Positions 1 through 17,653 of a DNA stretch of 17,653 nucleotides are shown in pieces. How positions within the stretch are numbered: the stretch's first letter is position 1; each line of letters begins with the position of its first letter. The notes below the pieces were generated by a model. That model was not told where the DNA came from. It searched no databases and saw only the letters and a program-made list of their open reading frames with translations. The stretch is from a virus. Both the position numbers and the translations under genes were made by a program. The stretch lies in the IMG/VR virus record IMGVR_UViG_3300044445_000035; one strand, 5' to 3'.

Positions 1-127
1 GCGCGGTCACTAGTGCCGACCTGCTTGACTACACGGAGACTACGCAATTAACTCGACTCGTCGAGAAGAATTGGGAAACGTTCAAGCCGGTATTTCAGGA
101 TCAGGCCCGCCTGAAAGTGATGTTCGG
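1..127. repeat. Terminal direct repeat, copy 1; identical to 17527..17653 and consistent with a circular-contig overlap
   Basis: Base-by-base comparison shows 1..127 equals 17527..17653. The repeat sits exactly at both window ends and lies inside a coding frame that is preserved, because the 17526 offset is divisible by 3. Confidence 0.9.
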
Positions 128-665
128 GCTCGTCCTGGATTACCGCAATCCGGCTCAGCACAATCGAGAATTGTTGGGCTTCGAGCGAGACCTGTTATCC
201 GGCGGCGCGCAACAGGTACGCAACCAGGTTGGGATCTACCGAAGTACCTCGGGTAGCCGGTCCCGGTTCTATCCCGTAATAGAGAGTGCGGTAGACGACC
301 GCGGGCGACCCGGTGTTCGACCTGGCCTCGACGTATACCCCATGCGTATCGAACGCTACTCCGTGGGTGACGAGATCGTGGTCCGCGCGCGAGCTGCTTC
401 TTCGAGATCTTTCGAGAATAGATGGTTCGTCACGCTTGTGGATTTCAGTCAGTTCGGAATTTCTAAGTCGGGAAAGGCCCCAGACAACGTCGCCGCGACT
501 GGCGAGGATGTCGAATTGCGGTATCGGTTTACGACTGCGGACGTCGGCGAGAATCGGGTGCTGGAGGTTTACCTGACCACAACATCGGCCTATCACCGGC
601 ACGGTAAGTGGCTCGACGATAATGCCCTGTTCAGGGTCGCTGTCGACCCACCGTGGGACGAGTGA
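3..665 (+). CDS. Swt1-like HEPN domain protein, C-terminal part; continues 17373..17653 across the circular junction, 272 aa in full
   Basis: The frame is open from the window edge, so the track ORF 117..665 is only its first-Met fragment. The sequence LLDYTETTQLTRLVEKNWETFKPVFQDQARLKVMFGLVLDYRNPAQHNRELL carries the Rx4H HEPN motif (R-NPAQ-H) in a Swt1-HEPN-like context. About 130 aa of beta-rich C-terminal sequence show no motif I recognise. GC is about 50-57% in sampled 60-nt blocks, against roughly 68% elsewhere. TGA stop at 663..665. Confidence 0.75.
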   Translation, partial: AVTSADLLDYTETTQLTRLVEKNWETFKPVFQDQARLKVMFGLVLDYRNPAQHNRELLGFERDLLSGGAQQVRNQVGIYRSTSGSRSRFYPVIESAVDDRGRPGVRPGLDVYPMRIERYSVGDEIVVRARAASSRSFENRWFVTLVDFSQFGISKSGKAPDNVAATGEDVELRYRFTTADVGENRVLEVYLTTTSAYHRHGKWLDDNALFRVAVDPPWDE

Positions 666-694: not shown

Positions 695-1015
695 CTAGTG
701 CACGAAAGTCGGGGCCACGACAGCGACGACAGCTCCGGCTAGCAGGAACACCTTCGCGGTTGAGGCGAACAGTGTGACCCAGTCTCTCGCCACAGTCCCC
801 AGGCCATCCGCCTTCGCTGCCAGCTCGACGATCCCGGCGAGCAGCGCCAGCCCGGCAAGGACCGCTGCCGTGGTTTCGGCGGTCCACACACGCCACACGA
901 CGACGGCGAGGACCAGGAGGGTCGAGACCGCGAGCAGGACGGCGATCGTCACACCGAAGGTGATCCAGCCCATCCCGGTCGACGCTTGAGGAGTTGTGTT
1001 CGGATTCGGAGTCAC
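695..1015 (-). CDS. Multi-pass membrane protein (second holin, antiholin or exclusion-type protein), 106 aa
   Basis: Three hydrophobic segments: GWITFGVTIAVLLAVSTLLVLAVVVW, AAVLAGLALLAGIV and VFLLAGAVVAVVAPTF. GTG start, high GC3, and the last gene of the minus-strand array. The start could instead be the internal ATG (MGWITF). Confidence 0.6.
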   Translation of the reverse strand: MTPNPNTTPQASTGMGWITFGVTIAVLLAVSTLLVLAVVVWRVWTAETTAAVLAGLALLAGIVELAAKADGLGTVARDWVTLFASTAKVFLLAGAVVAVVAPTFVH

Positions 1016-1025
1016 CCGACTGACA

Positions 1026-1343
1026 CTATCGACCGTCGTCCCGGGACGACCGCGGGTGGAGCTGGCGATTCAGCTCTGCGACTTCCGCATTCAGGCGGGC
1101 AATCTCGTCGTCCTTTTTTGAGAGGGTGCCGTTCGTCTGCTTCTGCACCGTCTCAATCTTCTGCTGCACGGAGTTGAGGCCCGCGCCCAGGCCCCCGGCC
1201 ACGACGACCAGACCCAGCACCTGGACGAGGAGCGCGGTGAACGTGGCGGTGGCGTCGGGGCGGTGGATCTGGAGGATGAGCGTTCCGGCGATGCCGATCG
1301 CGGCGAGGAGTCCGAAGACGAGGAACGCGACGTTCTTGTTCAT
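1026..1343 (-). CDS. Holin-like protein: two TM helices plus a charged coiled-coil tail, 105 aa
   Basis: TM1 is VAFLVFGLLAAIGIAGTLIL and TM2 is FTALLVQVLGLVVVAGGLGAGL, followed by the charged tail KIETVQKQTNGTLSKKDDEIARLNAEVAELNRQL. A GAAGGA Shine-Dalgarno lies upstream of the ATG. It sits directly after the hydrolase gene. Confidence 0.65.
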   Translation of the reverse strand: MNKNVAFLVFGLLAAIGIAGTLILQIHRPDATATFTALLVQVLGLVVVAGGLGAGLNSVQQKIETVQKQTNGTLSKKDDEIARLNAEVAELNRQLHPRSSRDDGR

Positions 1344-1364: not shown

Positions 1365-1895
1365 TCAGGCAGAGACGTCTACGGCGGCGCGGATGAGGTG
1401 GCGGAGCCATTCGCCCGCGGTCGTGCCCACGGGGGCGGTGGGGTGGATCTTGTCGGGTGAGCATTCAGCACGCCAGCGCCCCTCGGGGGTGCGGTACTGA
1501 GTCCAGGGGTCCACCCAGTACCAGCCCATCGCGGTGACGTAGTTCCGAATGTCGGTGTTGAGCTGCGCGGCCTCCGCGTAAAAGCCGTCGGAGCGGGGCG
1601 GCATGGCGGCGATGAGGGCACGGGCGGCGCCGGACTTGACCACGATGTCCCGAATAGCGATGAGGGTCACCTCGAGGGGGACACGCCACATGGCGTTGGA
1701 CACGTCGTTGGTTCCGACCATGATGACCGTCACGTCAGCCGTCACCGGGGCAGCATTCTGCGCCACCTGATACGACCGGTATCCGCCGTGCGCGTAGCCC
1801 CCGACATGCGCGACATCGGGGGCCACGGCCCCGTTCAGCCACGAGAAGTCGGGGGTCGCGGTGAGGGAGTCACCGTATGCGGCGAAGGTGGTCAC
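1365..1895 (-). CDS. SGNH/GDSL-family hydrolase (esterase); candidate lysis or receptor-modifying enzyme, 176 aa
   Basis: SGNH blocks are visible: AYGDSLT (block I), GGY (II), MVGTNDV (III) and DKIHPT (V, DxxH). I place the start at GTG 1895, which forms a GTGA overlap with the upstream stop at 1892..1894. The longer track ORF to 2093 has an Arg/Pro-rich N-terminus that looks non-coding and overlaps the fibre gene. Confidence 0.75.
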   Translation of the reverse strand: MTTFAAYGDSLTATPDFSWLNGAVAPDVAHVGGYAHGGYRSYQVAQNAAPVTADVTVIMVGTNDVSNAMWRVPLEVTLIAIRDIVVKSGAARALIAAMPPRSDGFYAEAAQLNTDIRNYVTAMGWYWVDPWTQYRTPEGRWRAECSPDKIHPTAPVGTTAGEWLRHLIRAAVDVSA

Positions 1896-7668: not shown

Positions 7669-8670
7669 TCAGCCCTCCGCGATGTAGGAAACGCCGGCCA
7701 CGTGAATGGTGGAGCCTGCGGACCACGAGCCGGTGAAGTTGAAAGCGAAGCTCGTCGGGACGATGCGCCCCGTGATCACGCCGTCGGCGAAGCTCACGAG
7801 GTTCATGCGCATGTTGGCTCGGGGGCGCACGCCCTCGGGGATTGTCCCGAGGGTCGTTCCCGCGGCGATCGAGGCCCCCGTGTTGTTGGTGATCTGCCCG
7901 AACCAGACGACCAGATTGCTTCCCGCGAACTTGCGAGCGGTGAAGCTCTGGCCGTCGCTCATCATGGGCACGAGAACGTCGGTGTACGCGGCGCTCGATC
8001 CGGCAGGCCCAGCGGGTCCCTGAGCGCCAGTCGCGCCCGTGTCACCCTTCGGGCCCTGGACACCTTGAATGCCCTGCGCTCCGGTGTCACCTTTCGGGCC
8101 GGTAGTCCCGGTGTCGCCCTTAGGACCTTGGATACCCTGTGGACCCTGAAGTCCGGTGTCACCCTTGATAGCCCCAATATTGTTCGCGTAGACCCACTGG
8201 CCGCTCGTGTATTGGAAGAAGTCTCGGCTGTCCGGATAGAGGAAGATATCTCCCTCAATCGGGTTGGCTACGTTGACGTAATCCGGGTTGGCAGCTTCGC
8301 TATGGAACCAGCGCCCCCCACGGATGCCCTGTGCTCCCGTGTCACCTTTCGCGCCCTGGATGCCCTGGGCGCCCTGTGATCCCGTGTCACCCTTCGCGCC
8401 CTGAGTGCCGGTGCCGCCCGTCAAGCCCGGCGGGCCTTGGGCGCCGGGCACACCCTGAACGCCTTGCGCTCCCGTCTCACCCTTCTCACCGGGGATACCC
8501 TGCGGTCCCTGTGCTCCTGTGTCGCCCTTCGCGCCCTGGATACCCTGCGGTCCAGCCGGACCCTGAGGGCCAGGTGACCCCGTGCCGCCTCCGGGTGCGG
8601 AGGTGAGAGGGGTGAGCACGAGACGGTCGCGTTCGTTGCTCTTTTCGAGGTCGATCCCGAGAATCGTCAT
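7669..8670 (-). CDS. Collagen-like (Gly-X-Y) repeat protein with a globular C-terminal domain; head fibre, decoration or fibre-like protein, 333 aa
   Basis: There are two G-X-Y tracts: residues 28-118 (about 30 triplets) and 166-224 (about 19 triplets). They are split by a 47-residue non-collagen insert (RWFHSEAANPDYVNVANPIEGDIFLYPDSRDFFQYTSGQWVYANNI). The last 109 residues are beta-rich. Confidence 0.8.
   Translation of the reverse strand: MTILGIDLEKSNERDRLVLTPLTSAPGGGTGSPGPQGPAGPQGIQGAKGDTGAQGPQGIPGEKGETGAQGVQGVPGAQGPPGLTGGTGTQGAKGDTGSQGAQGIQGAKGDTGAQGIRGGRWFHSEAANPDYVNVANPIEGDIFLYPDSRDFFQYTSGQWVYANNIGAIKGDTGLQGPQGIQGPKGDTGTTGPKGDTGAQGIQGVQGPKGDTGATGAQGPAGPAGSSAAYTDVLVPMMSDGQSFTARKFAGSNLVVWFGQITNNTGASIAAGTTLGTIPEGVRPRANMRMNLVSFADGVITGRIVPTSFAFNFTGSWSAGSTIHVAGVSYIAEG
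7999..8175 (-). repeat. Coding tandem G-X-Y repeat tract 2 of the collagen-like gene
   Basis: Residues G166..G224 with four KGDTG units. Near-identical DNA units such as ggtgtcaccctt/ggtgtcaccttt recur. Confidence 0.8.
8317..8589 (-). repeat. Coding tandem 9-nt (G-X-Y) repeat tract 1 of the collagen-like gene
   Basis: Recurring GGnGAyACnGGn / KGDTGAQG-encoding units. Codon positions were verified against the translation (G28..G118). Confidence 0.8.
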
Positions 8671-8706: not shown

Positions 8707-10458
8707 TTACGCGGCGGTGCCGATGAAGACGGTCGACTCGGGGCGGACGATGAACGTCTCGACGAAGCCGACGATCGAACGGTCGAGACCGAACTTCGCC
8801 ACCTCGACGGCGTCGATCTGGATCGGCGTCTCGCCCAGCTCCTTGAACTCGACGGCAGCCTTCGCGCCCGCGGCGACCTGCGGGTTCGCGGCGTTGGTGC
8901 CGGGGAAAGCCGACTGCGGGGCCTTCTTGACGACGACCTTGCCGTCGACGTTCGCCTCTCCGGTGCCGACGCCGACCTGCAGGGAGATGAACTCCGGCAG
9001 CAGCTCCTTCGGGGTGTAGATGAGCTGCGCCCACAGCACCGGGTTCACGATCGCCCACGAGGGGTCGTCGTCGGCGTCCGAGATCGCCTCGATCGCCTGG
9101 ATGAGCTGCACGACGCCGGGGTAGTAGGCGGAGTTCGCGGGCGTACCGGCGGGCAGCGAGCCGGGGGCGACGCGAGCCGAGAGGGCGGCGCCGTCGCGGT
9201 TCATCGCGACGCGAATGAGGGTGTCGCGCGCCTCGATGTCGGTCACCTTCGCGTAGCTGTCCGCGACGCCCTGCCAGAACTGCTGCATGATGTCGGCGCC
9301 GCCGGTGAGGTAGTTCCACTCCTGCGCGATGTCGGCGGCGTAGCCGTAGCTGTCACGGGTGGAGCTGCGCTTGCTGCTCGTCGCCGAGCCGGTCGGCAGC
9401 TCCTTCTTCTCGCCCGTGGTGCGCTTCTGCACGAGGCCCTCGGTGTCGTTCAGGCGGTAGCCCTCACGGCCGTTGATGTCGATCGGGCCGTAGACGTGCG
9501 TCGCGAGGTCGATGAACTTGCGGACGTAGCGCTTGCCCTGCCAGAGGCGGCCGACCCACGCCTTCGGGACCACGCCGTTCGAGAGGCTGCCGCCGGTCGT
9601 GATGTCGGCGAGGGCCATGAGAGCGCCCTCGGTGTCCTGGGATCGGGCGTTCTTCATCGCGTGCATGGCCGCGAAGAACGCGTTCATGTCGATGTCGGCG
9701 GGCTCGGGCGCGGGGGCCGGGGCACCGCTGAACAGGGCGGGGGCTGCGGGGGTCTGCGTCTCCGCGGGAGCGGCGGCAGCGGTCATGGTCTCCTCCTCGG
9801 AGTCGGTGGGGTTGGTGTCCTCGGCCGAGGTTTCGGCGTCGGTGATCTTCTCGACGGTGGACTTGCTGCTGTACTCCTCGATGCGGCGCCAGCGGACGCC
9901 CTCGGAGTCGGTGAATTCCGAGACGGTGCGGGAGCTGTTGTCGCGGTCGGGGGCGCTGTATTCGTCGGACGCGGGCACGTCGGTGGTGAACTCGACGTTC
10001 TGGCCGGGGGCGAGGGAGAACAGAGCGGCGGACTCGAACGCGCCGTCGATGCACACCGCTGCGCCGGTGAGGCGGGAGCGGACGGCGTTCGCGCCGTTGC
10101 GCACGAGGGATCCCAGCTCGGCCGAGAGCTTTCGCTTCCCGGTGCCGTCGCCGTAGGACGCGAGGAAGGCATCGCCTTCGTCGGTGTTCGCCACAGCGAA
10201 GCGGCCCACGACACCGGCGTCGGTCATCGTGAACGCAACGCCGCGACCGAGGGGGTTGAACCGGTCGTGCTCGTCATTCAGCGTGACGATCGAGGGATCG
10301 CGCGGCAGCGCCACGGCGGAGGCCGAGAACATGACGGGCTCAGTGCCGGAGAGGTTCGGGCGGGACAGCTCACCGAAGGGCAGCAGTAGGCCCTCGATCT
10401 CGCGAGAGTCGCCGACGCGGGAGAACAGACCGGCCTCGGTCGTAACAGTCGTGGTCAT
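8707..10458 (-). CDS. Prohead protease - scaffold-like linker - major capsid protein fusion, 583 aa
   Basis: The first ~170 residues look like an HK97-type prohead protease (EIEGLLLPFGELSRPN...VTLNDEHDRFNPLGR...). An acidic Ala/Pro linker follows (DAETSAEDTNPTDSEEETMTAAAAPAETQTPAAP). The last ~330 residues resemble an HK97-fold capsid protein. There is an ATGA overlap with the portal stop, and no separate protease or capsid ORF exists elsewhere. Confidence 0.75.
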   Translation of the reverse strand: MTTTVTTEAGLFSRVGDSREIEGLLLPFGELSRPNLSGTEPVMFSASAVALPRDPSIVTLNDEHDRFNPLGRGVAFTMTDAGVVGRFAVANTDEGDAFLASYGDGTGKRKLSAELGSLVRNGANAVRSRLTGAAVCIDGAFESAALFSLAPGQNVEFTTDVPASDEYSAPDRDNSSRTVSEFTDSEGVRWRRIEEYSSKSTVEKITDAETSAEDTNPTDSEEETMTAAAAPAETQTPAAPALFSGAPAPAPEPADIDMNAFFAAMHAMKNARSQDTEGALMALADITTGGSLSNGVVPKAWVGRLWQGKRYVRKFIDLATHVYGPIDINGREGYRLNDTEGLVQKRTTGEKKELPTGSATSSKRSSTRDSYGYAADIAQEWNYLTGGADIMQQFWQGVADSYAKVTDIEARDTLIRVAMNRDGAALSARVAPGSLPAGTPANSAYYPGVVQLIQAIEAISDADDDPSWAIVNPVLWAQLIYTPKELLPEFISLQVGVGTGEANVDGKVVVKKAPQSAFPGTNAANPQVAAGAKAAVEFKELGETPIQIDAVEVAKFGLDRSIVGFVETFIVRPESTVFIGTAA

Positions 10459-13564: not shown

Positions 13565-13621
13565 TGCTCTGTACCTCTCCTGCTCATCCCTCTTCGTCCC
13601 TCATCTGTGGGGCCGCTGCGG

Positions 13622-13668
13622 GTGTACCCGTGTACCCGCCCCTAAGGGGCGGGGGTACACAGGTACAC
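13622..13668. promoter_or_regulatory. Large imperfect inverted repeat (hairpin or cruciform) built from GTGTACC / GGTACAC units
   Basis: The left arm is GTGTACC-C-GTGTACCC-GCCCC, the loop is TAA, and the right arm is GGGGC-GG-GGGTACAC-A-GGTACAC. The arms are about 21 nt, with one 2-nt bulge and one mismatch. Confidence 0.7.
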
Positions 13669-13687
13669 TCCGGCGGCTGGGGCAGTG

Positions 13688-13734
13688 GTGTACCGGGTAC
13701 GTACCTCAGGTACGTCAGGTACGCCGGGTACGCC
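13688..13734. repeat. Iteron-like GGTAC(G/A) direct repeat array, including three units at 9-bp spacing
   Basis: The sequence reads GTGTACC GGGTACGTACC TCAGGTACGT CAGGTACGC CGGGTACGC C. GGTACG starts at 13696, 13709, 13718 and 13727. The array overlaps the last codons (RTRRT*) of the ATPase gene. Confidence 0.7.
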
Positions 13735-14992
13735 ATTCCCGAAGGGCTGTCTGAGCTCGGGTGTCGCCCCACGCCATGCGGTCCTTCACGTCTCGAACGC
13801 TCTTCGGTGCGGGGTCCAGACCGTCGAGGGTGGCGATGTCGGCCTCGAGAGCGGCGGCCGCGCGGGCCTCCTTGTCGGCCTGGATCTCGGTCGCGCTCTT
13901 GCCTCGGGTGAAGCGCACGTTCAGCTCCTCGGACATGACCGGCGTCAGGCTGCCGTCGTCGGCGGTGTCGACCCGCTCGATCGGGTGCGTGAACTGCACG
14001 AACGCCGCCACGGAGCGCGCCTCTCGGTGCCCGCCTCGGTCCTTCGCGACGGTGATGGTCACGTACCCGTTTGCGCTCCTCGAGAATGGCTCAATGACGT
14101 TCAGCACGTACTGCGCCCCGGTGATCGCGGCGCGCTTGCGCTGCGAGCCGATGGGCCAGAGCCCGCCGTCATCGCTCTTCGTCATGTGATCGAGCAACAC
14201 GACGCACGCGCCAGCATCCGCGAGGGGGTGCGGGATCTGCTGGAACCAGGCCGCGACCTCCTCATCCGCGTTCTGGTTCTTCCCCGCGGCGGCGATCGAC
14301 TCACCCGTCGAGTCCACGATGACCAGCGCGTCGGGTGTCGCCCTGACCCGCTCGATCATCGCCTCGATCCCGGCCCGGTCGTGGCCCTCGGGGTGGACGT
14401 AGTGGAACCGTCCTCGCACATGGTCCGAGGGAACGCGCAGGACGCTGACCAGACGTTGCAACGCGAGAGCCGCGGTGTCTTCATAGTCGAGGTAGTAGAC
14501 GTGCTTCCCGGCGGCCAGGTGCTCGGCTGCGGTCGCGAGCACGACCCAGCCCTTACCGCCGCCGGACTCACCCGCGAGGCCGTTCACGCGCCCAGCGTAG
14601 AAGAGTCCGCCGCCTCCGTCGTCGACCTGGCCCACGGTCGGCACCGGCAGCGTGAGCGTCCCGGCGTCGATCTGGTCGAGGATGTCGTCGAGCGGGTGAT
14701 CGTCCCAGCTCGCCGCGTCTCCACTGCCGAACGTGACGGAAGAGCCGCCTCGATCGCTCGCGGGCACCTCGGACGGATCGACTGTTGCGTCGTAGGTCTG
14801 GAAGAGTGCCTTTCGCCACCGCTGCTCTCGGGTCGAGATCCGCTGGCCTGTCGTCGGGTCGTAGCCCTCGAAGGCCCACGTCTCGCGCTCGACGTATCCC
14901 CACGTCATCCACTCGTCGGGCTGCTGATAACCGTCGTCCTCGAACTCGGCAAGGCGGTTCGATGAATAGACCACGGTTGCTCCTCCGGTCAT
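13715..14992 (-). CDS. RepA/DnaB-like RecA-fold ATPase (AAA_25-type replication protein), 425 aa
   Basis: Walker A GLAGESGGGKGWV, Walker B PDALVIVDSTGES, and a downstream LLDHMTKS motif. I place the start at ATG 14992, which forms an ATGA overlap with the upstream ORF stop. The track ORF extends to 15118 with an Arg/Pro-rich, non-coding-looking N-terminus. Confidence 0.75.
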   Translation of the reverse strand: MTGGATVVYSSNRLAEFEDDGYQQPDEWMTWGYVERETWAFEGYDPTTGQRISTREQRWRKALFQTYDATVDPSEVPASDRGGSSVTFGSGDAASWDDHPLDDILDQIDAGTLTLPVPTVGQVDDGGGGLFYAGRVNGLAGESGGGKGWVVLATAAEHLAAGKHVYYLDYEDTAALALQRLVSVLRVPSDHVRGRFHYVHPEGHDRAGIEAMIERVRATPDALVIVDSTGESIAAAGKNQNADEEVAAWFQQIPHPLADAGACVVLLDHMTKSDDGGLWPIGSQRKRAAITGAQYVLNVIEPFSRSANGYVTITVAKDRGGHREARSVAAFVQFTHPIERVDTADDGSLTPVMSEELNVRFTRGKSATEIQADKEARAAAALEADIATLDGLDPAPKSVRDVKDRMAWGDTRAQTALREWRTRRT

Positions 14993-15270
14993 GCGCTTAC
15001 CTGCGGGGCGGAGCGGCCTCGACCTGCGCGCTCCGCGAGAAGCTCGAGGCACCGCCGTTGCGTCTTCTCGCCGGTCGGGCGGATCGACTCGGGGTTGTCG
15101 TCGTGGCGCGAGCTGCACTCACAGCACGGCTGATCGCGCCAGCTCTCGAAGCTGCGCTGTCCGCCAGCCTCGAAGTAGTCGATGAAGGCAGAGACCTCAT
15201 CGCTCAGACGGTTCCAGGCGTCGCTACCGGGCTGAATGTCGGGGCGTTCGTGGCCCTCGCACGCGCTCAC
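14989..15270 (-). CDS. Hypothetical Cys-containing protein, 93 aa
   Basis: High GC3 throughout, GTG start in a GTGA overlap with the upstream micro-ORF, and stop in an ATGA overlap with the ATPase gene. It contains a CCECS cluster. I recognise no family. Confidence 0.6.
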   Translation of the reverse strand: MSACEGHERPDIQPGSDAWNRLSDEVSAFIDYFEAGGQRSFESWRDQPCCECSSRHDDNPESIRPTGEKTQRRCLELLAERAGRGRSAPQVSA

Positions 15271-15392
15271 AGCGACACCGCCGTAAGGCCGACGATGAAA
15301 CCCCAGGCCCAGCCGACTGCACCAGCGAGCGAGAGAGTCCCGACGAATGCGAGGGTGACGACCGCGGCCTCAAGGCGCGACGGGGCGCTCAT
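15267..15392 (-). CDS. Micro-ORF for a 41-aa single-pass membrane peptide; absent from the ORF track
   Basis: My translation is MSAPSRLEAAVVTLAFVGTLSLAGAVGWAWGFIVGLTAVSL. The start is in an ATGA overlap with the upstream stop and the stop is in a GTGA overlap with the next start, so it exactly bridges two coupled genes. Confidence 0.5.
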   Translation of the reverse strand: MSAPSRLEAAVVTLAFVGTLSLAGAVGWAWGFIVGLTAVSL

Positions 15393-15610
15393 CGCTGACC
15401 GCCCCGGACAATGAGGACCGTCAGACGCGACGCCTGAGCGTCGGTGAGGGCGGGTGCGCCGTCGAGGTTGCGGCGGATCGCCTGTTCGATGTTGGCGGCG
15501 GCGAGGTCACGACGCGCGTCGCGAGTGCTGGGGTGATCTTCGCCGTGCAGGTGGCGACGGCGGCTGTAGCTGCCCGCGGCCTGTCGGACGGTGGGGTGGT
15601 CGGTAGACAC
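15389..15610 (-). CDS. Hypothetical small protein, first gene of the early/replication operon, 73 aa
   Basis: GTG start with a strong AAGGAG Shine-Dalgarno 6 nt upstream, and high GC3. I recognise no family; it could be a small regulator or a recombination directionality factor. Confidence 0.6.
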   Translation of the reverse strand: MSTDHPTVRQAAGSYSRRRHLHGEDHPSTRDARRDLAAANIEQAIRRNLDGAPALTDAQASRLTVLIVRGGQR

Positions 15611-15819: not shown

Positions 15820-17283
15820 CTACAGAGCCGCGATGGTGACACGTTCTGGGGCGTCGGGACGGTTCACGACGACCGACAGGTGCCGTCGCGCGAGCCCTCG
15901 GCGCTCCTCGATGTCGAGGGTCGTCCACAGCCGCTCCCACGTCGCCAGGGCCTCCGCGCCCTCGAATGTCCCGCCCCATTCCATCGGGTCGGCGCGCCAG
16001 GCTTCTAGCACGCGATAGAGCGTGCGCGCGGCCTCGGAAAGCGGCGCTGAGCCCGCGTTGCGTGCGGCCTCGATTGCCTCGCGCACGCCCGTCAGCTCGG
16101 CCTGTAGGCCACGAGCGCGCGCGAGGTCGTCGGCGCCGCCGAACTCCGAGAAGAGGCCCTTCGCGCGCGCGAGCTGCGCGGCAGTGTCGGCCTCCTCGCG
16201 CACCAGGCGCGCCAGCTCAGGCGAGGCGTCCGACTCGTCCACGCCCGCGCCCATCGCTGCGCGAAGCTCGGGCAGGGCGGCAGACTCCAGTAGCTCCGCC
16301 TTGATGCGAGCGTGACCCGGCGGGGTGGGCATGCCCGGAGTGCGCGCGGCCTCGGCGATGAGCCGACACGTGTAGCCGGGGGCGTAGTTGCCGCGCGACC
16401 AGTACGAACCGACTCGAAGAGGCTCACCGCACGCGCAGGTCGCGACACCCGACAGCCACCGTTCGCCGGTCGGCCGTCCCGAGGGCTTCCGGCTCGCTCC
16501 CGACCCGAGGATCGCGACCGCAGCCTCCCAGACCTCCAGCGACACAATCGGCGTGATCTTCGACGCTGCGGCCCGCTCGCCGTTCGCGATCAGGATCCCG
16601 GCGTTGCGCTCTCGGGTGAGGGTGTTCCGCGCCGTGACCGCGCTCCATTCGCTACCGCGGAGGGTGCGCCAGCCAGCGGCGTTCCAGCCTCGGGCGATCT
16701 GCCGGACGGGTACGCCCGCCAGCACGTCGGCGTACGCCTGACGGATCAGCTCGGCCTCATCCTCCCGAGGGGTCATCCCGTTCGCCTCGTAGCCGAACAC
16801 GCGCGGCCGACCGGCGGGGATGCCTTGCCTCACGCCTTCGGAGTTGCGGAACTTCCGCCGCTCTGACGTTCTCTCCGCCTCGGCGGCGTCCCACGCGGCC
16901 ACCGTGCGGGCCGTGGCCCGCCCGTCCGCGGTGTTGAGGTCGTAGCGGGGCGACACCTTGTAGAGGTAGCTCACCCCGCGGCGCTGCGCGAGCGAGATCA
17001 GGCGCTCCCACTCGGCGGGTCGGCGCGTGAGGCGCGACATCGAGTAGCTGACGATGGTGTCAAACTCTCCTCGCTCCGCGGCTTCGAGCAACGCCTCGAA
17101 TCCGGGACGTGGCTTTCGGGAATTTGTCGACGCCGATGTGTCGTTGTCTTTGTAGACGGCCGTCACCGTCAGGCCGTGCTGAGCGGCCAGCTCCCGACCG
17201 GCGGCCTCCTGATTTGAGGTGCCGACCTCCGACCCTTCGGCGTCACGAGAGATTCGACAGTAGAGAGCGCAGGAGTATGACAC
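15820..17283 (-). CDS. int: Large serine recombinase (phage integrase), 487 aa
   Basis: The N-terminal resolvase-type catalytic motif is ALYCRISRD...GTSNQEAAGRELAAQHG...DNDTSAS. It is followed by a recombinase domain, a Cys-rich zinc-ribbon-like segment (CACGEPLRVGSYWSRGNYAPGYTC) and an Ala/Glu/Arg-rich coiled-coil-like C-terminus. GTG start. Confidence 0.9.
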   Translation of the reverse strand: MSYSCALYCRISRDAEGSEVGTSNQEAAGRELAAQHGLTVTAVYKDNDTSASTNSRKPRPGFEALLEAAERGEFDTIVSYSMSRLTRRPAEWERLISLAQRRGVSYLYKVSPRYDLNTADGRATARTVAAWDAAEAERTSERRKFRNSEGVRQGIPAGRPRVFGYEANGMTPREDEAELIRQAYADVLAGVPVRQIARGWNAAGWRTLRGSEWSAVTARNTLTRERNAGILIANGERAAASKITPIVSLEVWEAAVAILGSGASRKPSGRPTGERWLSGVATCACGEPLRVGSYWSRGNYAPGYTCRLIAEAARTPGMPTPPGHARIKAELLESAALPELRAAMGAGVDESDASPELARLVREEADTAAQLARAKGLFSEFGGADDLARARGLQAELTGVREAIEAARNAGSAPLSEAARTLYRVLEAWRADPMEWGGTFEGAEALATWERLWTTLDIEERRGLARRHLSVVVNRPDAPERVTIAAL

Positions 17284-17329
17284 GCAACAAGATTAAGATC
17301 GACGTGTCCTAGTCGTCAATTCTTGCGTG
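17281..17329. promoter_or_regulatory. AT-richer imperfect inverted repeat in the divergent int/HEPN intergenic region; candidate attP or operator
   Basis: CACGCAA ... TTGCGTG are perfect 7-bp termini around CAAGATTAAGATCGACGTGTCCTAGTCGTCAATTC, with partial internal symmetry (GATCGACG / CGTCAATTC). A second palindrome, GGTCGTggACGACC, lies at 17334..17347. Confidence 0.4.
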
Positions 17330-17372
17330 TCGAGGTCGTGGACGACCGGCCCGCGCCGGGTACGTTGACCCT

Positions 17373-17653
17373 GTGACGTTGGAACCAGGGGAAGCCGTTG
17401 CGGTGTTCGAGACCGCACTACGTACAGCCATTCGCGAATTGCTCCCGAGCTGGCAATCGAAGCTCGGCGCTGAGGCCGTCGCCCGCCTTCGGGATAAGCA
17501 GGTCGAGGACGACAAGAAACGGGACGGCGCGGTCACTAGTGCCGACCTGCTTGACTACACGGAGACTACGCAATTAACTCGACTCGTCGAGAAGAATTGG
17601 GAAACGTTCAAGCCGGTATTTCAGGATCAGGCCCGCCTGAAAGTGATGTTCGG
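17373..17653 (+). CDS. Swt1-like HEPN domain protein, N-terminal part; continues at window position 1 across the circular junction
   Basis: GTG 17373 is the first start after the in-frame TAG at 17310..17312, and the frame is open to the window end. It translates as VTLEPGEAVAVFETALRTAIRELLPSWQSKLGAEAVARLRDKQVEDDKKRDGAVTSADLLDYTE.... The last 127 nt duplicate 1..127. The Shine-Dalgarno is weak, so the exact start is uncertain. Confidence 0.7.
   Translation, partial: MTLEPGEAVAVFETALRTAIRELLPSWQSKLGAEAVARLRDKQVEDDKKRDGAVTSADLLDYTETTQLTRLVEKNWETFKPVFQDQARLKVMF
17527..17653. repeat. Terminal direct repeat, copy 2; identical to 1..127
   Basis: Exact 127/127 identity with the window start. Confidence 0.9.

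Follow-up and report, generated by a model that had tools for sequence, protein, structure and literature searches.

Bacterial members of the Abi2-Swt1 clade of HEPN domains are, by prediction, active defence ribonucleases (RNases), and the eukaryotic Swt1 HEPN domain, which is fused to a PIN domain, is probably inactive (PMC3710099, Anantharaman et al. 2013). ApeA is a HEPN transfer RNA nuclease (tRNase) that is turned on by ligand binding outside its active site (bioRxiv 10.64898/2026.01.26.701840), and DARNA/PD-T7-3 is an abortive infection (Abi) tRNase that combines an N-terminal HEPN domain carrying an Rx4H motif with a C-terminal non-catalytic sensor (bioRxiv 10.64898/2026.02.22.705581). 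PDC-M34 is a two-gene defence candidate from a guilt-by-embedding preprint, with the cassette FAM_01148>>FAM_01657 (Payne et al., 10.1101/2024.01.29.577857). Among actinophages, prophage-mediated heterotypic defence genes lie near the integration/immunity region in Cluster N mycobacteriophages, Sbash and CarolAnn (PMC9262239). Here we analyze a 272-residue protein encoded in IMG/VR virus record IMGVR_UViG_3300044445_000035 (17,653 nucleotides, referred to as the window), in which a predicted Swt1-like HEPN domain is followed by an immunoglobulin (Ig)-like domain. By analogy with the systems above, the HEPN-Ig gene is a plausible anti-phage defence gene.

The first 127 nt of the window repeat its last 127 nt exactly (1-127 = 17527-17653), and the contig is circular or terminally redundant with 17,526 bp of unique sequence. 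This overlap means that features near either contig end need to be read across the junction, and that the HEPN-Ig gene is untruncated. Its open reading frame (ORF; 17373..17653 + 128..665) is unbroken over 819 nt and 272 aa, from a GTG start to a TGA stop at 663-665. When homologues are aligned, their N-termini (MALEP, MTMEP, MVTLEP) coincide with the GTG at 17373, and the Joint Genome Institute (JGI) gene call uses an alternative TTG start at 17379. HEPN-Ig is the sole plus-strand gene, as had been proposed in an original prediction made from the sequence alone, and the two peptide strings quoted there (YRNPAQHNRE and YPVIESAVDD...DPPWDE) are present in the translation. The gene is divergent from a serine integrase, across an 89-bp spacer, and convergent with the lysis region, in agreement with the predicted cargo slot between the two. 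It is a real gene and no chance ORF, because it has 1,297 homologue clusters and a ratio of nonsynonymous to synonymous substitution rates (dN/dS) of 0.17 against the copy in a related phage.

The N-terminal half can be placed transitively in the Swt1/Abi2 clade of HEPN domains, with an intact catalytic motif. PF18731 (HEPN_Swt1) was matched by 95 of 111 relatives (best E=4.5e-8) and PF18725 (HEPN_SAV2148) by 57 of them, and eight out of ten relatives tested exceeded the PF18731 gathering score of 27.5 bits, with 28.4-34.9 bits over residues ~9-119, which include the Rx4H motif. The relatives that match PF18731 in turn score E<=1e-70 against the HEPN-Ig family profile, and several members are labeled 'Swt1 family HEPN domain-containing protein' by NCBI and JGI. 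Within the motif, R100 and H105 are kept in 157/157 relatives and N101 in 92%, with R107 and E113 at 99% and the more N-terminal E13 and R17 at 94-96%. The AlphaFold2 (AF2) model of this domain is a confident all-alpha bundle with a predicted local distance difference test (pLDDT) score of 91 and a predicted template modeling score (pTM) of 0.85, and the Rx4H motif is located just before helix 111-135. The HEPN assignment is based on the transitive profile evidence and the motif conservation, not on structure. A scan of the query against PHROGs gave nothing useful and phmmer against the Protein Data Bank (PDB) gave noise only. The sole match in defence databases came from PADLOC, where residues 8-113 of the query hit PDC-M34B (E=2.2e-9); hidden Markov models (HMMs) for PDC-M34B were matched by the HEPN domain of 84/85 members (best E=4.6e-16).

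The original prediction held that the last ~130 residues match nothing recognizable, but structure prediction, Foldseek and the family profile all identify them as an Ig-like beta-sandwich. The full-length AF2 model (pLDDT 78) shows a disordered linker (residues 133-141) and then seven strands spanning residues 145-267. Foldseek matches for the C-domain included NPC2, RhoGDI, an FGFR Ig domain, titin Ig domains and nanobodies, at probabilities of 0.94-1.0, E values of 1e-4 to 1e-2 and target-normalized template modeling (TM) scores of 0.4-0.5, and this search, run with the full-length model, returned the Ig-like half only. The family profile also aligned with antibody V domains (E=2.7e-6) through a 'GDxVTfxC...W' B/C-strand pattern, and the C-domain itself shows a 'GDxVxVxAxA...W' pattern in which D150 and D257 are invariant. 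Among the 111 members scanned, weak matches were obtained to Ig_3 (16), I-set (9) and ig (5), and one plasmid copy is named 'immunoglobulin domain-containing protein' in RefSeq. We regard this half as a putative sensor or regulatory domain.

The two halves of the protein evolve at different rates. Compared with the 79%-identical copy in a related phage, dN was 0.158 over the whole gene, but 0.053 in the HEPN half (dN/dS 0.09) and 0.282 in the Ig-like half (dN/dS 0.17), an approximately 5-fold difference in dN. By these dN/dS values, purifying selection maintains a functional gene. The same contrast was seen in the two nearest relatives, in which the HEPN half is 92% and 77% identical and the Ig half 63% and 38%, and across the family the N-domain is better conserved than the C-domain in 84% of 7,748 pairs. 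The integrase and HEPN block is 80% identical in nucleotide sequence to that of a related phage (L015) while the adjoining lysis and tail DNA is 94% identical, a contrast that is typical phage mosaicism.

The gene has a GC content of 58.5% (67% at third codon positions, GC3) compared to 67.9% for the contig, and GC3 in seven other measured genes was 79-93%. The contrast in the original prediction (50-57% against ~68%) was therefore right, although the figure for the gene was slightly low. Recent horizontal acquisition, which had been proposed from this contrast, did not hold up: HEPN-Ig genes were 4-13 points below locus GC in 9/9 loci measured, and a low GC across the family is expected for a horizontally moving gene and is no evidence of recent acquisition by the present phage.

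An exhaustive profile search recovered 1,297 clusters (50% identity) at E<=1e-3 and 314 at E<=1e-30, and most of the best matches listed were 255-290 aa long and covered both domains. A word-indexed search had found 10 proteins, as if the family were very rare, which the exhaustive search showed to be a sensitivity artefact. All members identified to organism are actinobacterial, and the carriers include 7 plasmids, integrative and conjugative elements (ICEs) and their actinomycete forms (AICEs), and chromosomal islands. The family is already in databases under automatic names; no account of it, experimental or comparative, turned up in the searchable literature. The proposal that the gene is phage-borne is correct here, as two related temperate phages carry it in the same slot, the second with a 79%-identical copy (L015, L016), but most of the family resides elsewhere. 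An alignment-based locus search found none in viral contigs and one locus in genomes.

In 14 inspected loci, HEPN-Ig was a solo gene on mobile elements or defence-like islands and never inside housekeeping operons, the neighborhood pattern anticipated for a cargo gene in the original prediction. A Microbacterium chromosome (L001) has ~1 kb left of a related phage, next to an Rhs polymorphic-toxin locus, and this remnant includes an intact copy; there the HEPN gene is 71% identical in nucleotide sequence, and a fragment of the window gene at 1026..1343 is 77% identical. Sequence resembling the phage starts ~25 nt into the HEPN gene, and no resemblance was detected upstream of the start codon, a boundary that would fit a gene at the end of a prophage. 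In Rhodococcus and Curtobacterium conjugative elements, the TrwC relaxase lies on one side of the gene and the T4 coupling protein (T4CP) on the other. Other copies were found in a degenerate prophage, adjoining AbiTii and a Cro/CI-like gene, in an HSDR_N/HNH/HNH_2 islet, on an island with an integrase fragment, and at sites flanked by insertion sequences (IS) on Rhodococcus, Gordonia and Streptomyces plasmids. One Streptomyces chromosomal locus was uninformative. A further member (P0076; L018, 1180-2241) lies at the edge of a pSAM2-type AICE with FtsK/SpoIIIE, RepSA and integrase genes.

Some of these loci have features of their own. P0076 belongs to a subfamily with an N-terminal extension of ~90 aa (P0007, P0021, P0022, P0024, P0027, P0034, P0076), and in this member the added part forms a ClpX-type C4 zinc finger (PF06689, E=1.4e-9), which hints at an extra adaptor or regulatory module. 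In two Rhodococcus loci (L004, L005), a 242-aa unannotated protein (9150-9888, minus strand) is divergent from the HEPN-Ig gene; the two copies are 93% identical, have no PADLOC match, and no counterpart was found elsewhere. Downstream, both loci encode a giant DUF8437 helicase of 1,935-1,968 aa.

No conserved partner gene was detected in the 14 loci, nor by all-versus-all BLAST of the neighbors from eight loci, consistent with the stand-alone gene of the original prediction. The only match between neighbors was a phage lysis-region gene, which revealed a prophage remnant. PADLOC gave no match for 10 neighboring proteins (window, L001, L004, L005), and no MNT nucleotidyltransferase was found beside the gene in the window or in the Pfam lists of 12 other loci. 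An Rfam scan of the whole window identified no family near the HEPN-Ig gene, and there are no flanking tandem repeats and no repeat array. An RNA antitoxin was considered and rejected, as no Rfam family or repeat array lies near the gene.

The start of the gene provides clues to how it could be expressed. A TANNNT hexamer precedes the GTG by exactly 6 nt, and a hexamer at the same distance from the start is found in L015, L001 (TATCCT), L008 (TAGACT) and L009 (TAGGGT). No Shine-Dalgarno sequence is present upstream of the start. In actinobacterial promoters, a -10 element just before the start codon fits leaderless transcripts. Taken together, these features suggest that HEPN-Ig has its own promoter and a leaderless transcript. 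A consensus sigma-70 scan around the gene found nothing, and scans for intrinsic terminators were uninformative. Because the gene lies beside the integrase on the strand opposite to all lytic genes, it appears positioned for expression from the prophage, and its orientation and promoter geometry would point to lysogenic expression. This is the layout of a moron: an autonomous unit next to int, opposite in strand to the lytic genes and variable among related phages.

We propose, at about even confidence and largely by analogy, that the cargo gene HEPN-Ig encodes a HEPN RNase that works as a single, autoinhibited protein, has a sensor domain and acts in abortive infection or exclusion. Under this proposal, a two-domain cytoplasmic protein would be expressed from the prophage and kept inactive in uninfected lysogens, until the fast-evolving Ig-like domain sensed a product of a superinfecting phage or another infection cue. 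Sensing would license the HEPN domains, probably as dimers or larger oligomers that form a composite Rx4H active site, to cleave cellular RNA, with tRNA anticodon loops as the likeliest target by analogy. RNA cleavage would then arrest translation and abort the cycle of the superinfecting phage, and the benefit would fall to the prophage, plasmid or ICE bearing the gene. The RNase activity, autoinhibition, trigger, target, oligomeric state and defence phenotype in this scheme are what we infer from the domains and their contexts.

A more specific joint version, which we consider unlikely as a whole, is that the Ig-like domain directly binds a structural or early protein of the invading phage and thereby releases an autoinhibited HEPN tRNase, making a CapRel-like fused sensor-effector. 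If true, this would be immunoglobulin-fold pattern recognition coupled to an RNase in bacterial immunity, in an actinobacteria-specific family that shuttles among phages, AICEs and plasmids and adjusts its specificity as the Ig half is swapped or rapidly diverges.

Several results weigh against the autoinhibited defence RNase that we propose. The query itself matched no family in Pfam-A (hmmscan) or NCBIfam even at E<=10, so the direct PF18731 hit expected in the original prediction did not appear. Structure comparison of the N-domain with the PDB was not significant: the top Foldseek match was 4nqf_B, a 'HEPN domain protein', at E=0.69 (the best E overall) and TM~0.3, with MntA-HepT also among the matches, and the N-domain sequence profile found no solved relative in the PDB. 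Synonymous divergence (dS) is ~3x higher in the Ig half than in the HEPN half (1.6 vs 0.57), which suggests recombination as much as diversifying selection as the source of its divergence. Phage carriage is exceptional, with 0 homologues in 50,697 sequenced phage genomes, and the contexts at the 14 loci were inspected by eye. Finally, PDC-M34, the nearest defence-database model, is a two-gene candidate whose A partner is absent from the scanned neighbors here.

An addiction toxin or a toxin of inter-element competition, which would stabilize the carrier element or harm cells or rivals and be neutralized in cis by the Ig domain or by an unlinked factor, without being dedicated to anti-phage immunity, is unlikely in our judgment. 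Such a role would suit a gene carried on every kind of actinobacterial mobile element, including between conjugation genes, but no antitoxin-like gene or RNA is adjacent to it in the 14 loci. HEPN domains are classical toxins of toxin-antitoxin (TA) systems (PMC3710099), and those classical toxins pair with MNT proteins, which are absent here. The copy adjoining the Rhs locus and the intact copy kept in a phage remnant could also be read as a toxin in competition or retention; the protein, however, lacks a secretion signal as well as any delivery domain, whether Rhs, WXG or another, and a single autoinhibited protein alone cannot give post-segregational killing.

We think it quite unlikely that HEPN-Ig is a counter-defence or host-takeover RNase that degrades CRISPR RNA, retron non-coding RNA or cyclic oligoadenylates, or reshapes the host transcriptome on entry. 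Its position opposite the lytic genes and beside the integrase is a lysogenic-cargo layout and not that of an early anti-defence gene, although on conjugative elements it adjoins the relaxase, and it is carried by elements that must overcome host immunity. Some HEPN enzymes do degrade cyclic oligoadenylate signals (bioRxiv 10.64898/2026.02.22.705581). Against this role, a prophage remnant in a chromosome still has an intact copy, although the host there would gain nothing from counter-defence, and chromosomal neighbors include AbiTii, HSDR_N and HNH proteins.

A life-cycle regulator, for example an RNA-binding or processing factor that controls lysogeny in a phage without an obvious repressor, is highly improbable: HEPN-Ig is the sole gene in the orientation expected of lysogeny maintenance, no opposite-strand helix-turn-helix (HTH) repressor was recognized in this 17.5-kb phage, HTH genes occupy the equivalent block of the closest sequenced relative and an inverted repeat lies in the shared promoter region, but the protein is also found on plasmids, AICEs and chromosomal islands whose regulation is unrelated, has no DNA-binding domain, is low-GC cargo with a mosaic history and keeps invariant catalytic residues that favor a nuclease. 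A role as the phage repressor was considered and given low weight.

The contig that carries the proposed defence RNase is a compact temperate siphophage of Actinobacteria. Supported genes other than HEPN-Ig are all on the minus strand, in agreement with independent JGI gene calls on an overlapping metagenome contig (L006). PHROG scans of these genes identified a RepA/AAA_25-type helicase-primase, an HNH endonuclease and the large terminase, as well as genes for the major head protein (capsid), the major and minor tail proteins and the tape-measure protein. With the contig as a whole as query, Megablast gave no nucleotide match among the 50,697 phage genomes. By terminase, the nearest sequenced relative is Microbacterium phage PensacolaC28 (L019; 16.7 kb, 39% amino acid identity), which has the same layout with an opposite-strand lipoprotein, a tyrosine integrase and two HTH genes directly after the lysis genes. 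The position of HEPN-Ig in the window is equivalent to this opposite-strand cargo block. No opposite-strand HTH immunity repressor was recognized in the window; small unannotated ORFs lie at 15389..15610, 15267..15392 and 14989..15270.

Coordinates are collected below, with positions numbered from the first nucleotide of the window.

Table. Features of the HEPN-Ig gene and of the surrounding phage genome in the window.
Feature	Position	Strand	Remarks
HEPN-Ig gene, 5' part (codons 1-93 and start of codon 94)	17373..17653	+	GTG start at 17373
HEPN-Ig gene, remainder	1..665	+	bases 1-127 duplicate 17527-17653; unique continuation 128-665
TACGTT, TANNNT -10-like hexamer	17361..17366	+	exactly 6 nt upstream of GTG start
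Swt1-like HEPN domain (transitive assignment), residues ~5-135	17385..17653 + 128..251	+	all-alpha; last long helix residues 111-135
Rx4H motif R100-N-P-A-Q-H105, then R107, E113	144..161	+	conserved in relatives
Inter-domain linker, flexible, residues ~136-141	252..269	+	pLDDT <50 at residues 133-141
Ig-like beta-sandwich, residues ~142-269	270..653	+	seven predicted strands, residues 145-267
Inverted repeat GACACGCAACAA / TTCTTGCGTGTC	17279..17331	.	12-nt arms, 29-nt spacer; overlaps integrase start codon
Serine integrase, large, 487 aa	15820..17283	-	phrog_95 E=4.8e-74; N-terminal YCRISRD motif; matches to phage serine integrases
Multi-pass membrane protein, 92 aa, convergent neighbor of HEPN-Ig gene	695..973	-	gene calls
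Transmembrane and coiled-coil protein, 105 aa, lysis region	1026..1343	-	98% identical in L015
GDSL/SGNH esterase, lysis region	1365..1895	-	PHROG/gene calls
Collagen-like (Gly-X-Y) tail-fibre gene	7669-8670	-	45-nt tandem repeats at 8326-8553

Two features next to HEPN-Ig deserve comment. The inverted repeat lies within the 89-bp intergenic region between the integrase and HEPN-Ig genes and is kept in the related phage L015, and is a candidate for the attP core of the serine integrase or for an operator. On the other side, the 350-bp segment at 671-1021, which holds the 92-aa membrane protein, is missing from the related phages L015 and L016 and from the chromosomal remnant L001, so this protein is not a conserved partner of HEPN-Ig. 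It may be a second small cargo gene, encoding a holin-like or exclusion protein, that was inserted beside it. The JGI call for the integrase (on L006) is 448 aa long and begins 39 codons late, which removes the N-terminal YCRISRD motif with the catalytic serine; the plausible gene is thus the 487-aa ORF from 17283.

Farther from HEPN-Ig, the intergenic region between the HNH and helicase/primase genes (13565-13740) contains a very stable hairpin at 13611-13678 (DNA fold z=-5.2), which draws spurious microRNA matches in Rfam on both strands, and GTACC-rich 9-mer tandem repeats at 13701-13735. We consider it a candidate for an origin of replication, a cos/pac site or a site of regulation.

Defence systems of Actinobacteria have seldom been tested experimentally (bioRxiv 10.1101/2023.03.30.534874). 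If the proposed function of HEPN-Ig is confirmed, the one-protein abortive-infection systems would gain a compact HEPN immune effector of 272 aa, encoded by one gene and equipped with an Ig-like sensor. It would bear on phage-host range in Microbacterium, Rhodococcus, Streptomyces, Gordonia and Corynebacterium, and on phage-therapy and strain-engineering work in those hosts. The pairing of a conserved catalytic half with a fast-evolving Ig half would also make a tractable model for the evolution of sensor specificity. This would be no new category, as HEPN fusions on mobile elements have been predicted to be defence effectors since 2013.

Comparison with described systems places HEPN-Ig, by transitive homology, with PF18731 and the Abi2-Swt1 clade. 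It shares with them an all-alpha domain of ~135 residues, a conserved N-terminal ExxLR motif, conserved Trp residues and RNxxxH before the last long helix, but differs in that the query itself falls below detection and in its C-terminal Ig-like fusion. The 2013 HEPN survey (PMC3710099) describes numerous fusions in this clade, but an Ig-like one is not in its list, and its main text contains no instance of Ig-like, Ig domain, immunoglobulin or sandwich. The match to PDC-M34 is limited to the HEPN region (HMMs of 147-192 positions), and the HEPN-Ig gene here lies outside BREX, DISARM and type I restriction-modification loci. HEPN-MNT (HepT/MntA) and AbiF/AbiD are similar in being HEPN RNase toxins with an Rx4H motif on mobile elements, the RNase activity being a prediction for HEPN-Ig. 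Unlike HEPN-MNT, HEPN-Ig has no adjacent MNT gene, and unlike AbiF/AbiD, which have an RNA antitoxin, it has no Rfam family or repeat array beside it, with Abi_2 matched by 2/111 members at E>=0.022.

In architecture, the protein resembles ApeA and DARNA, which also combine an Rx4H HEPN effector and a non-catalytic domain in one polypeptide and need no partner gene, and whose non-catalytic domain receives the infection signal. DARNA further shares the order of domains, with HEPN at the N-terminus and the sensor at the C-terminus. Neither the query nor 85 relatives matched the PADLOC models of ApeA or DARNA in sequence, and the accessory parts differ: a ~300-aa helical Pds5-like domain in DARNA and a ligand pocket in ApeA, compared to a ~130-aa Ig-like sandwich here. 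HEPN-Ig is also much smaller, at 272 aa, and has an actinobacterial host range. The likeness to ApeA and DARNA would therefore be architectural and functional only. In genomic setting, the nearest parallel is the heterotypic defence of actinophages, which uses other proteins but follows the same plan: cargo beside the integration/immunity region, variable between relatives and placed for lysogenic expression.

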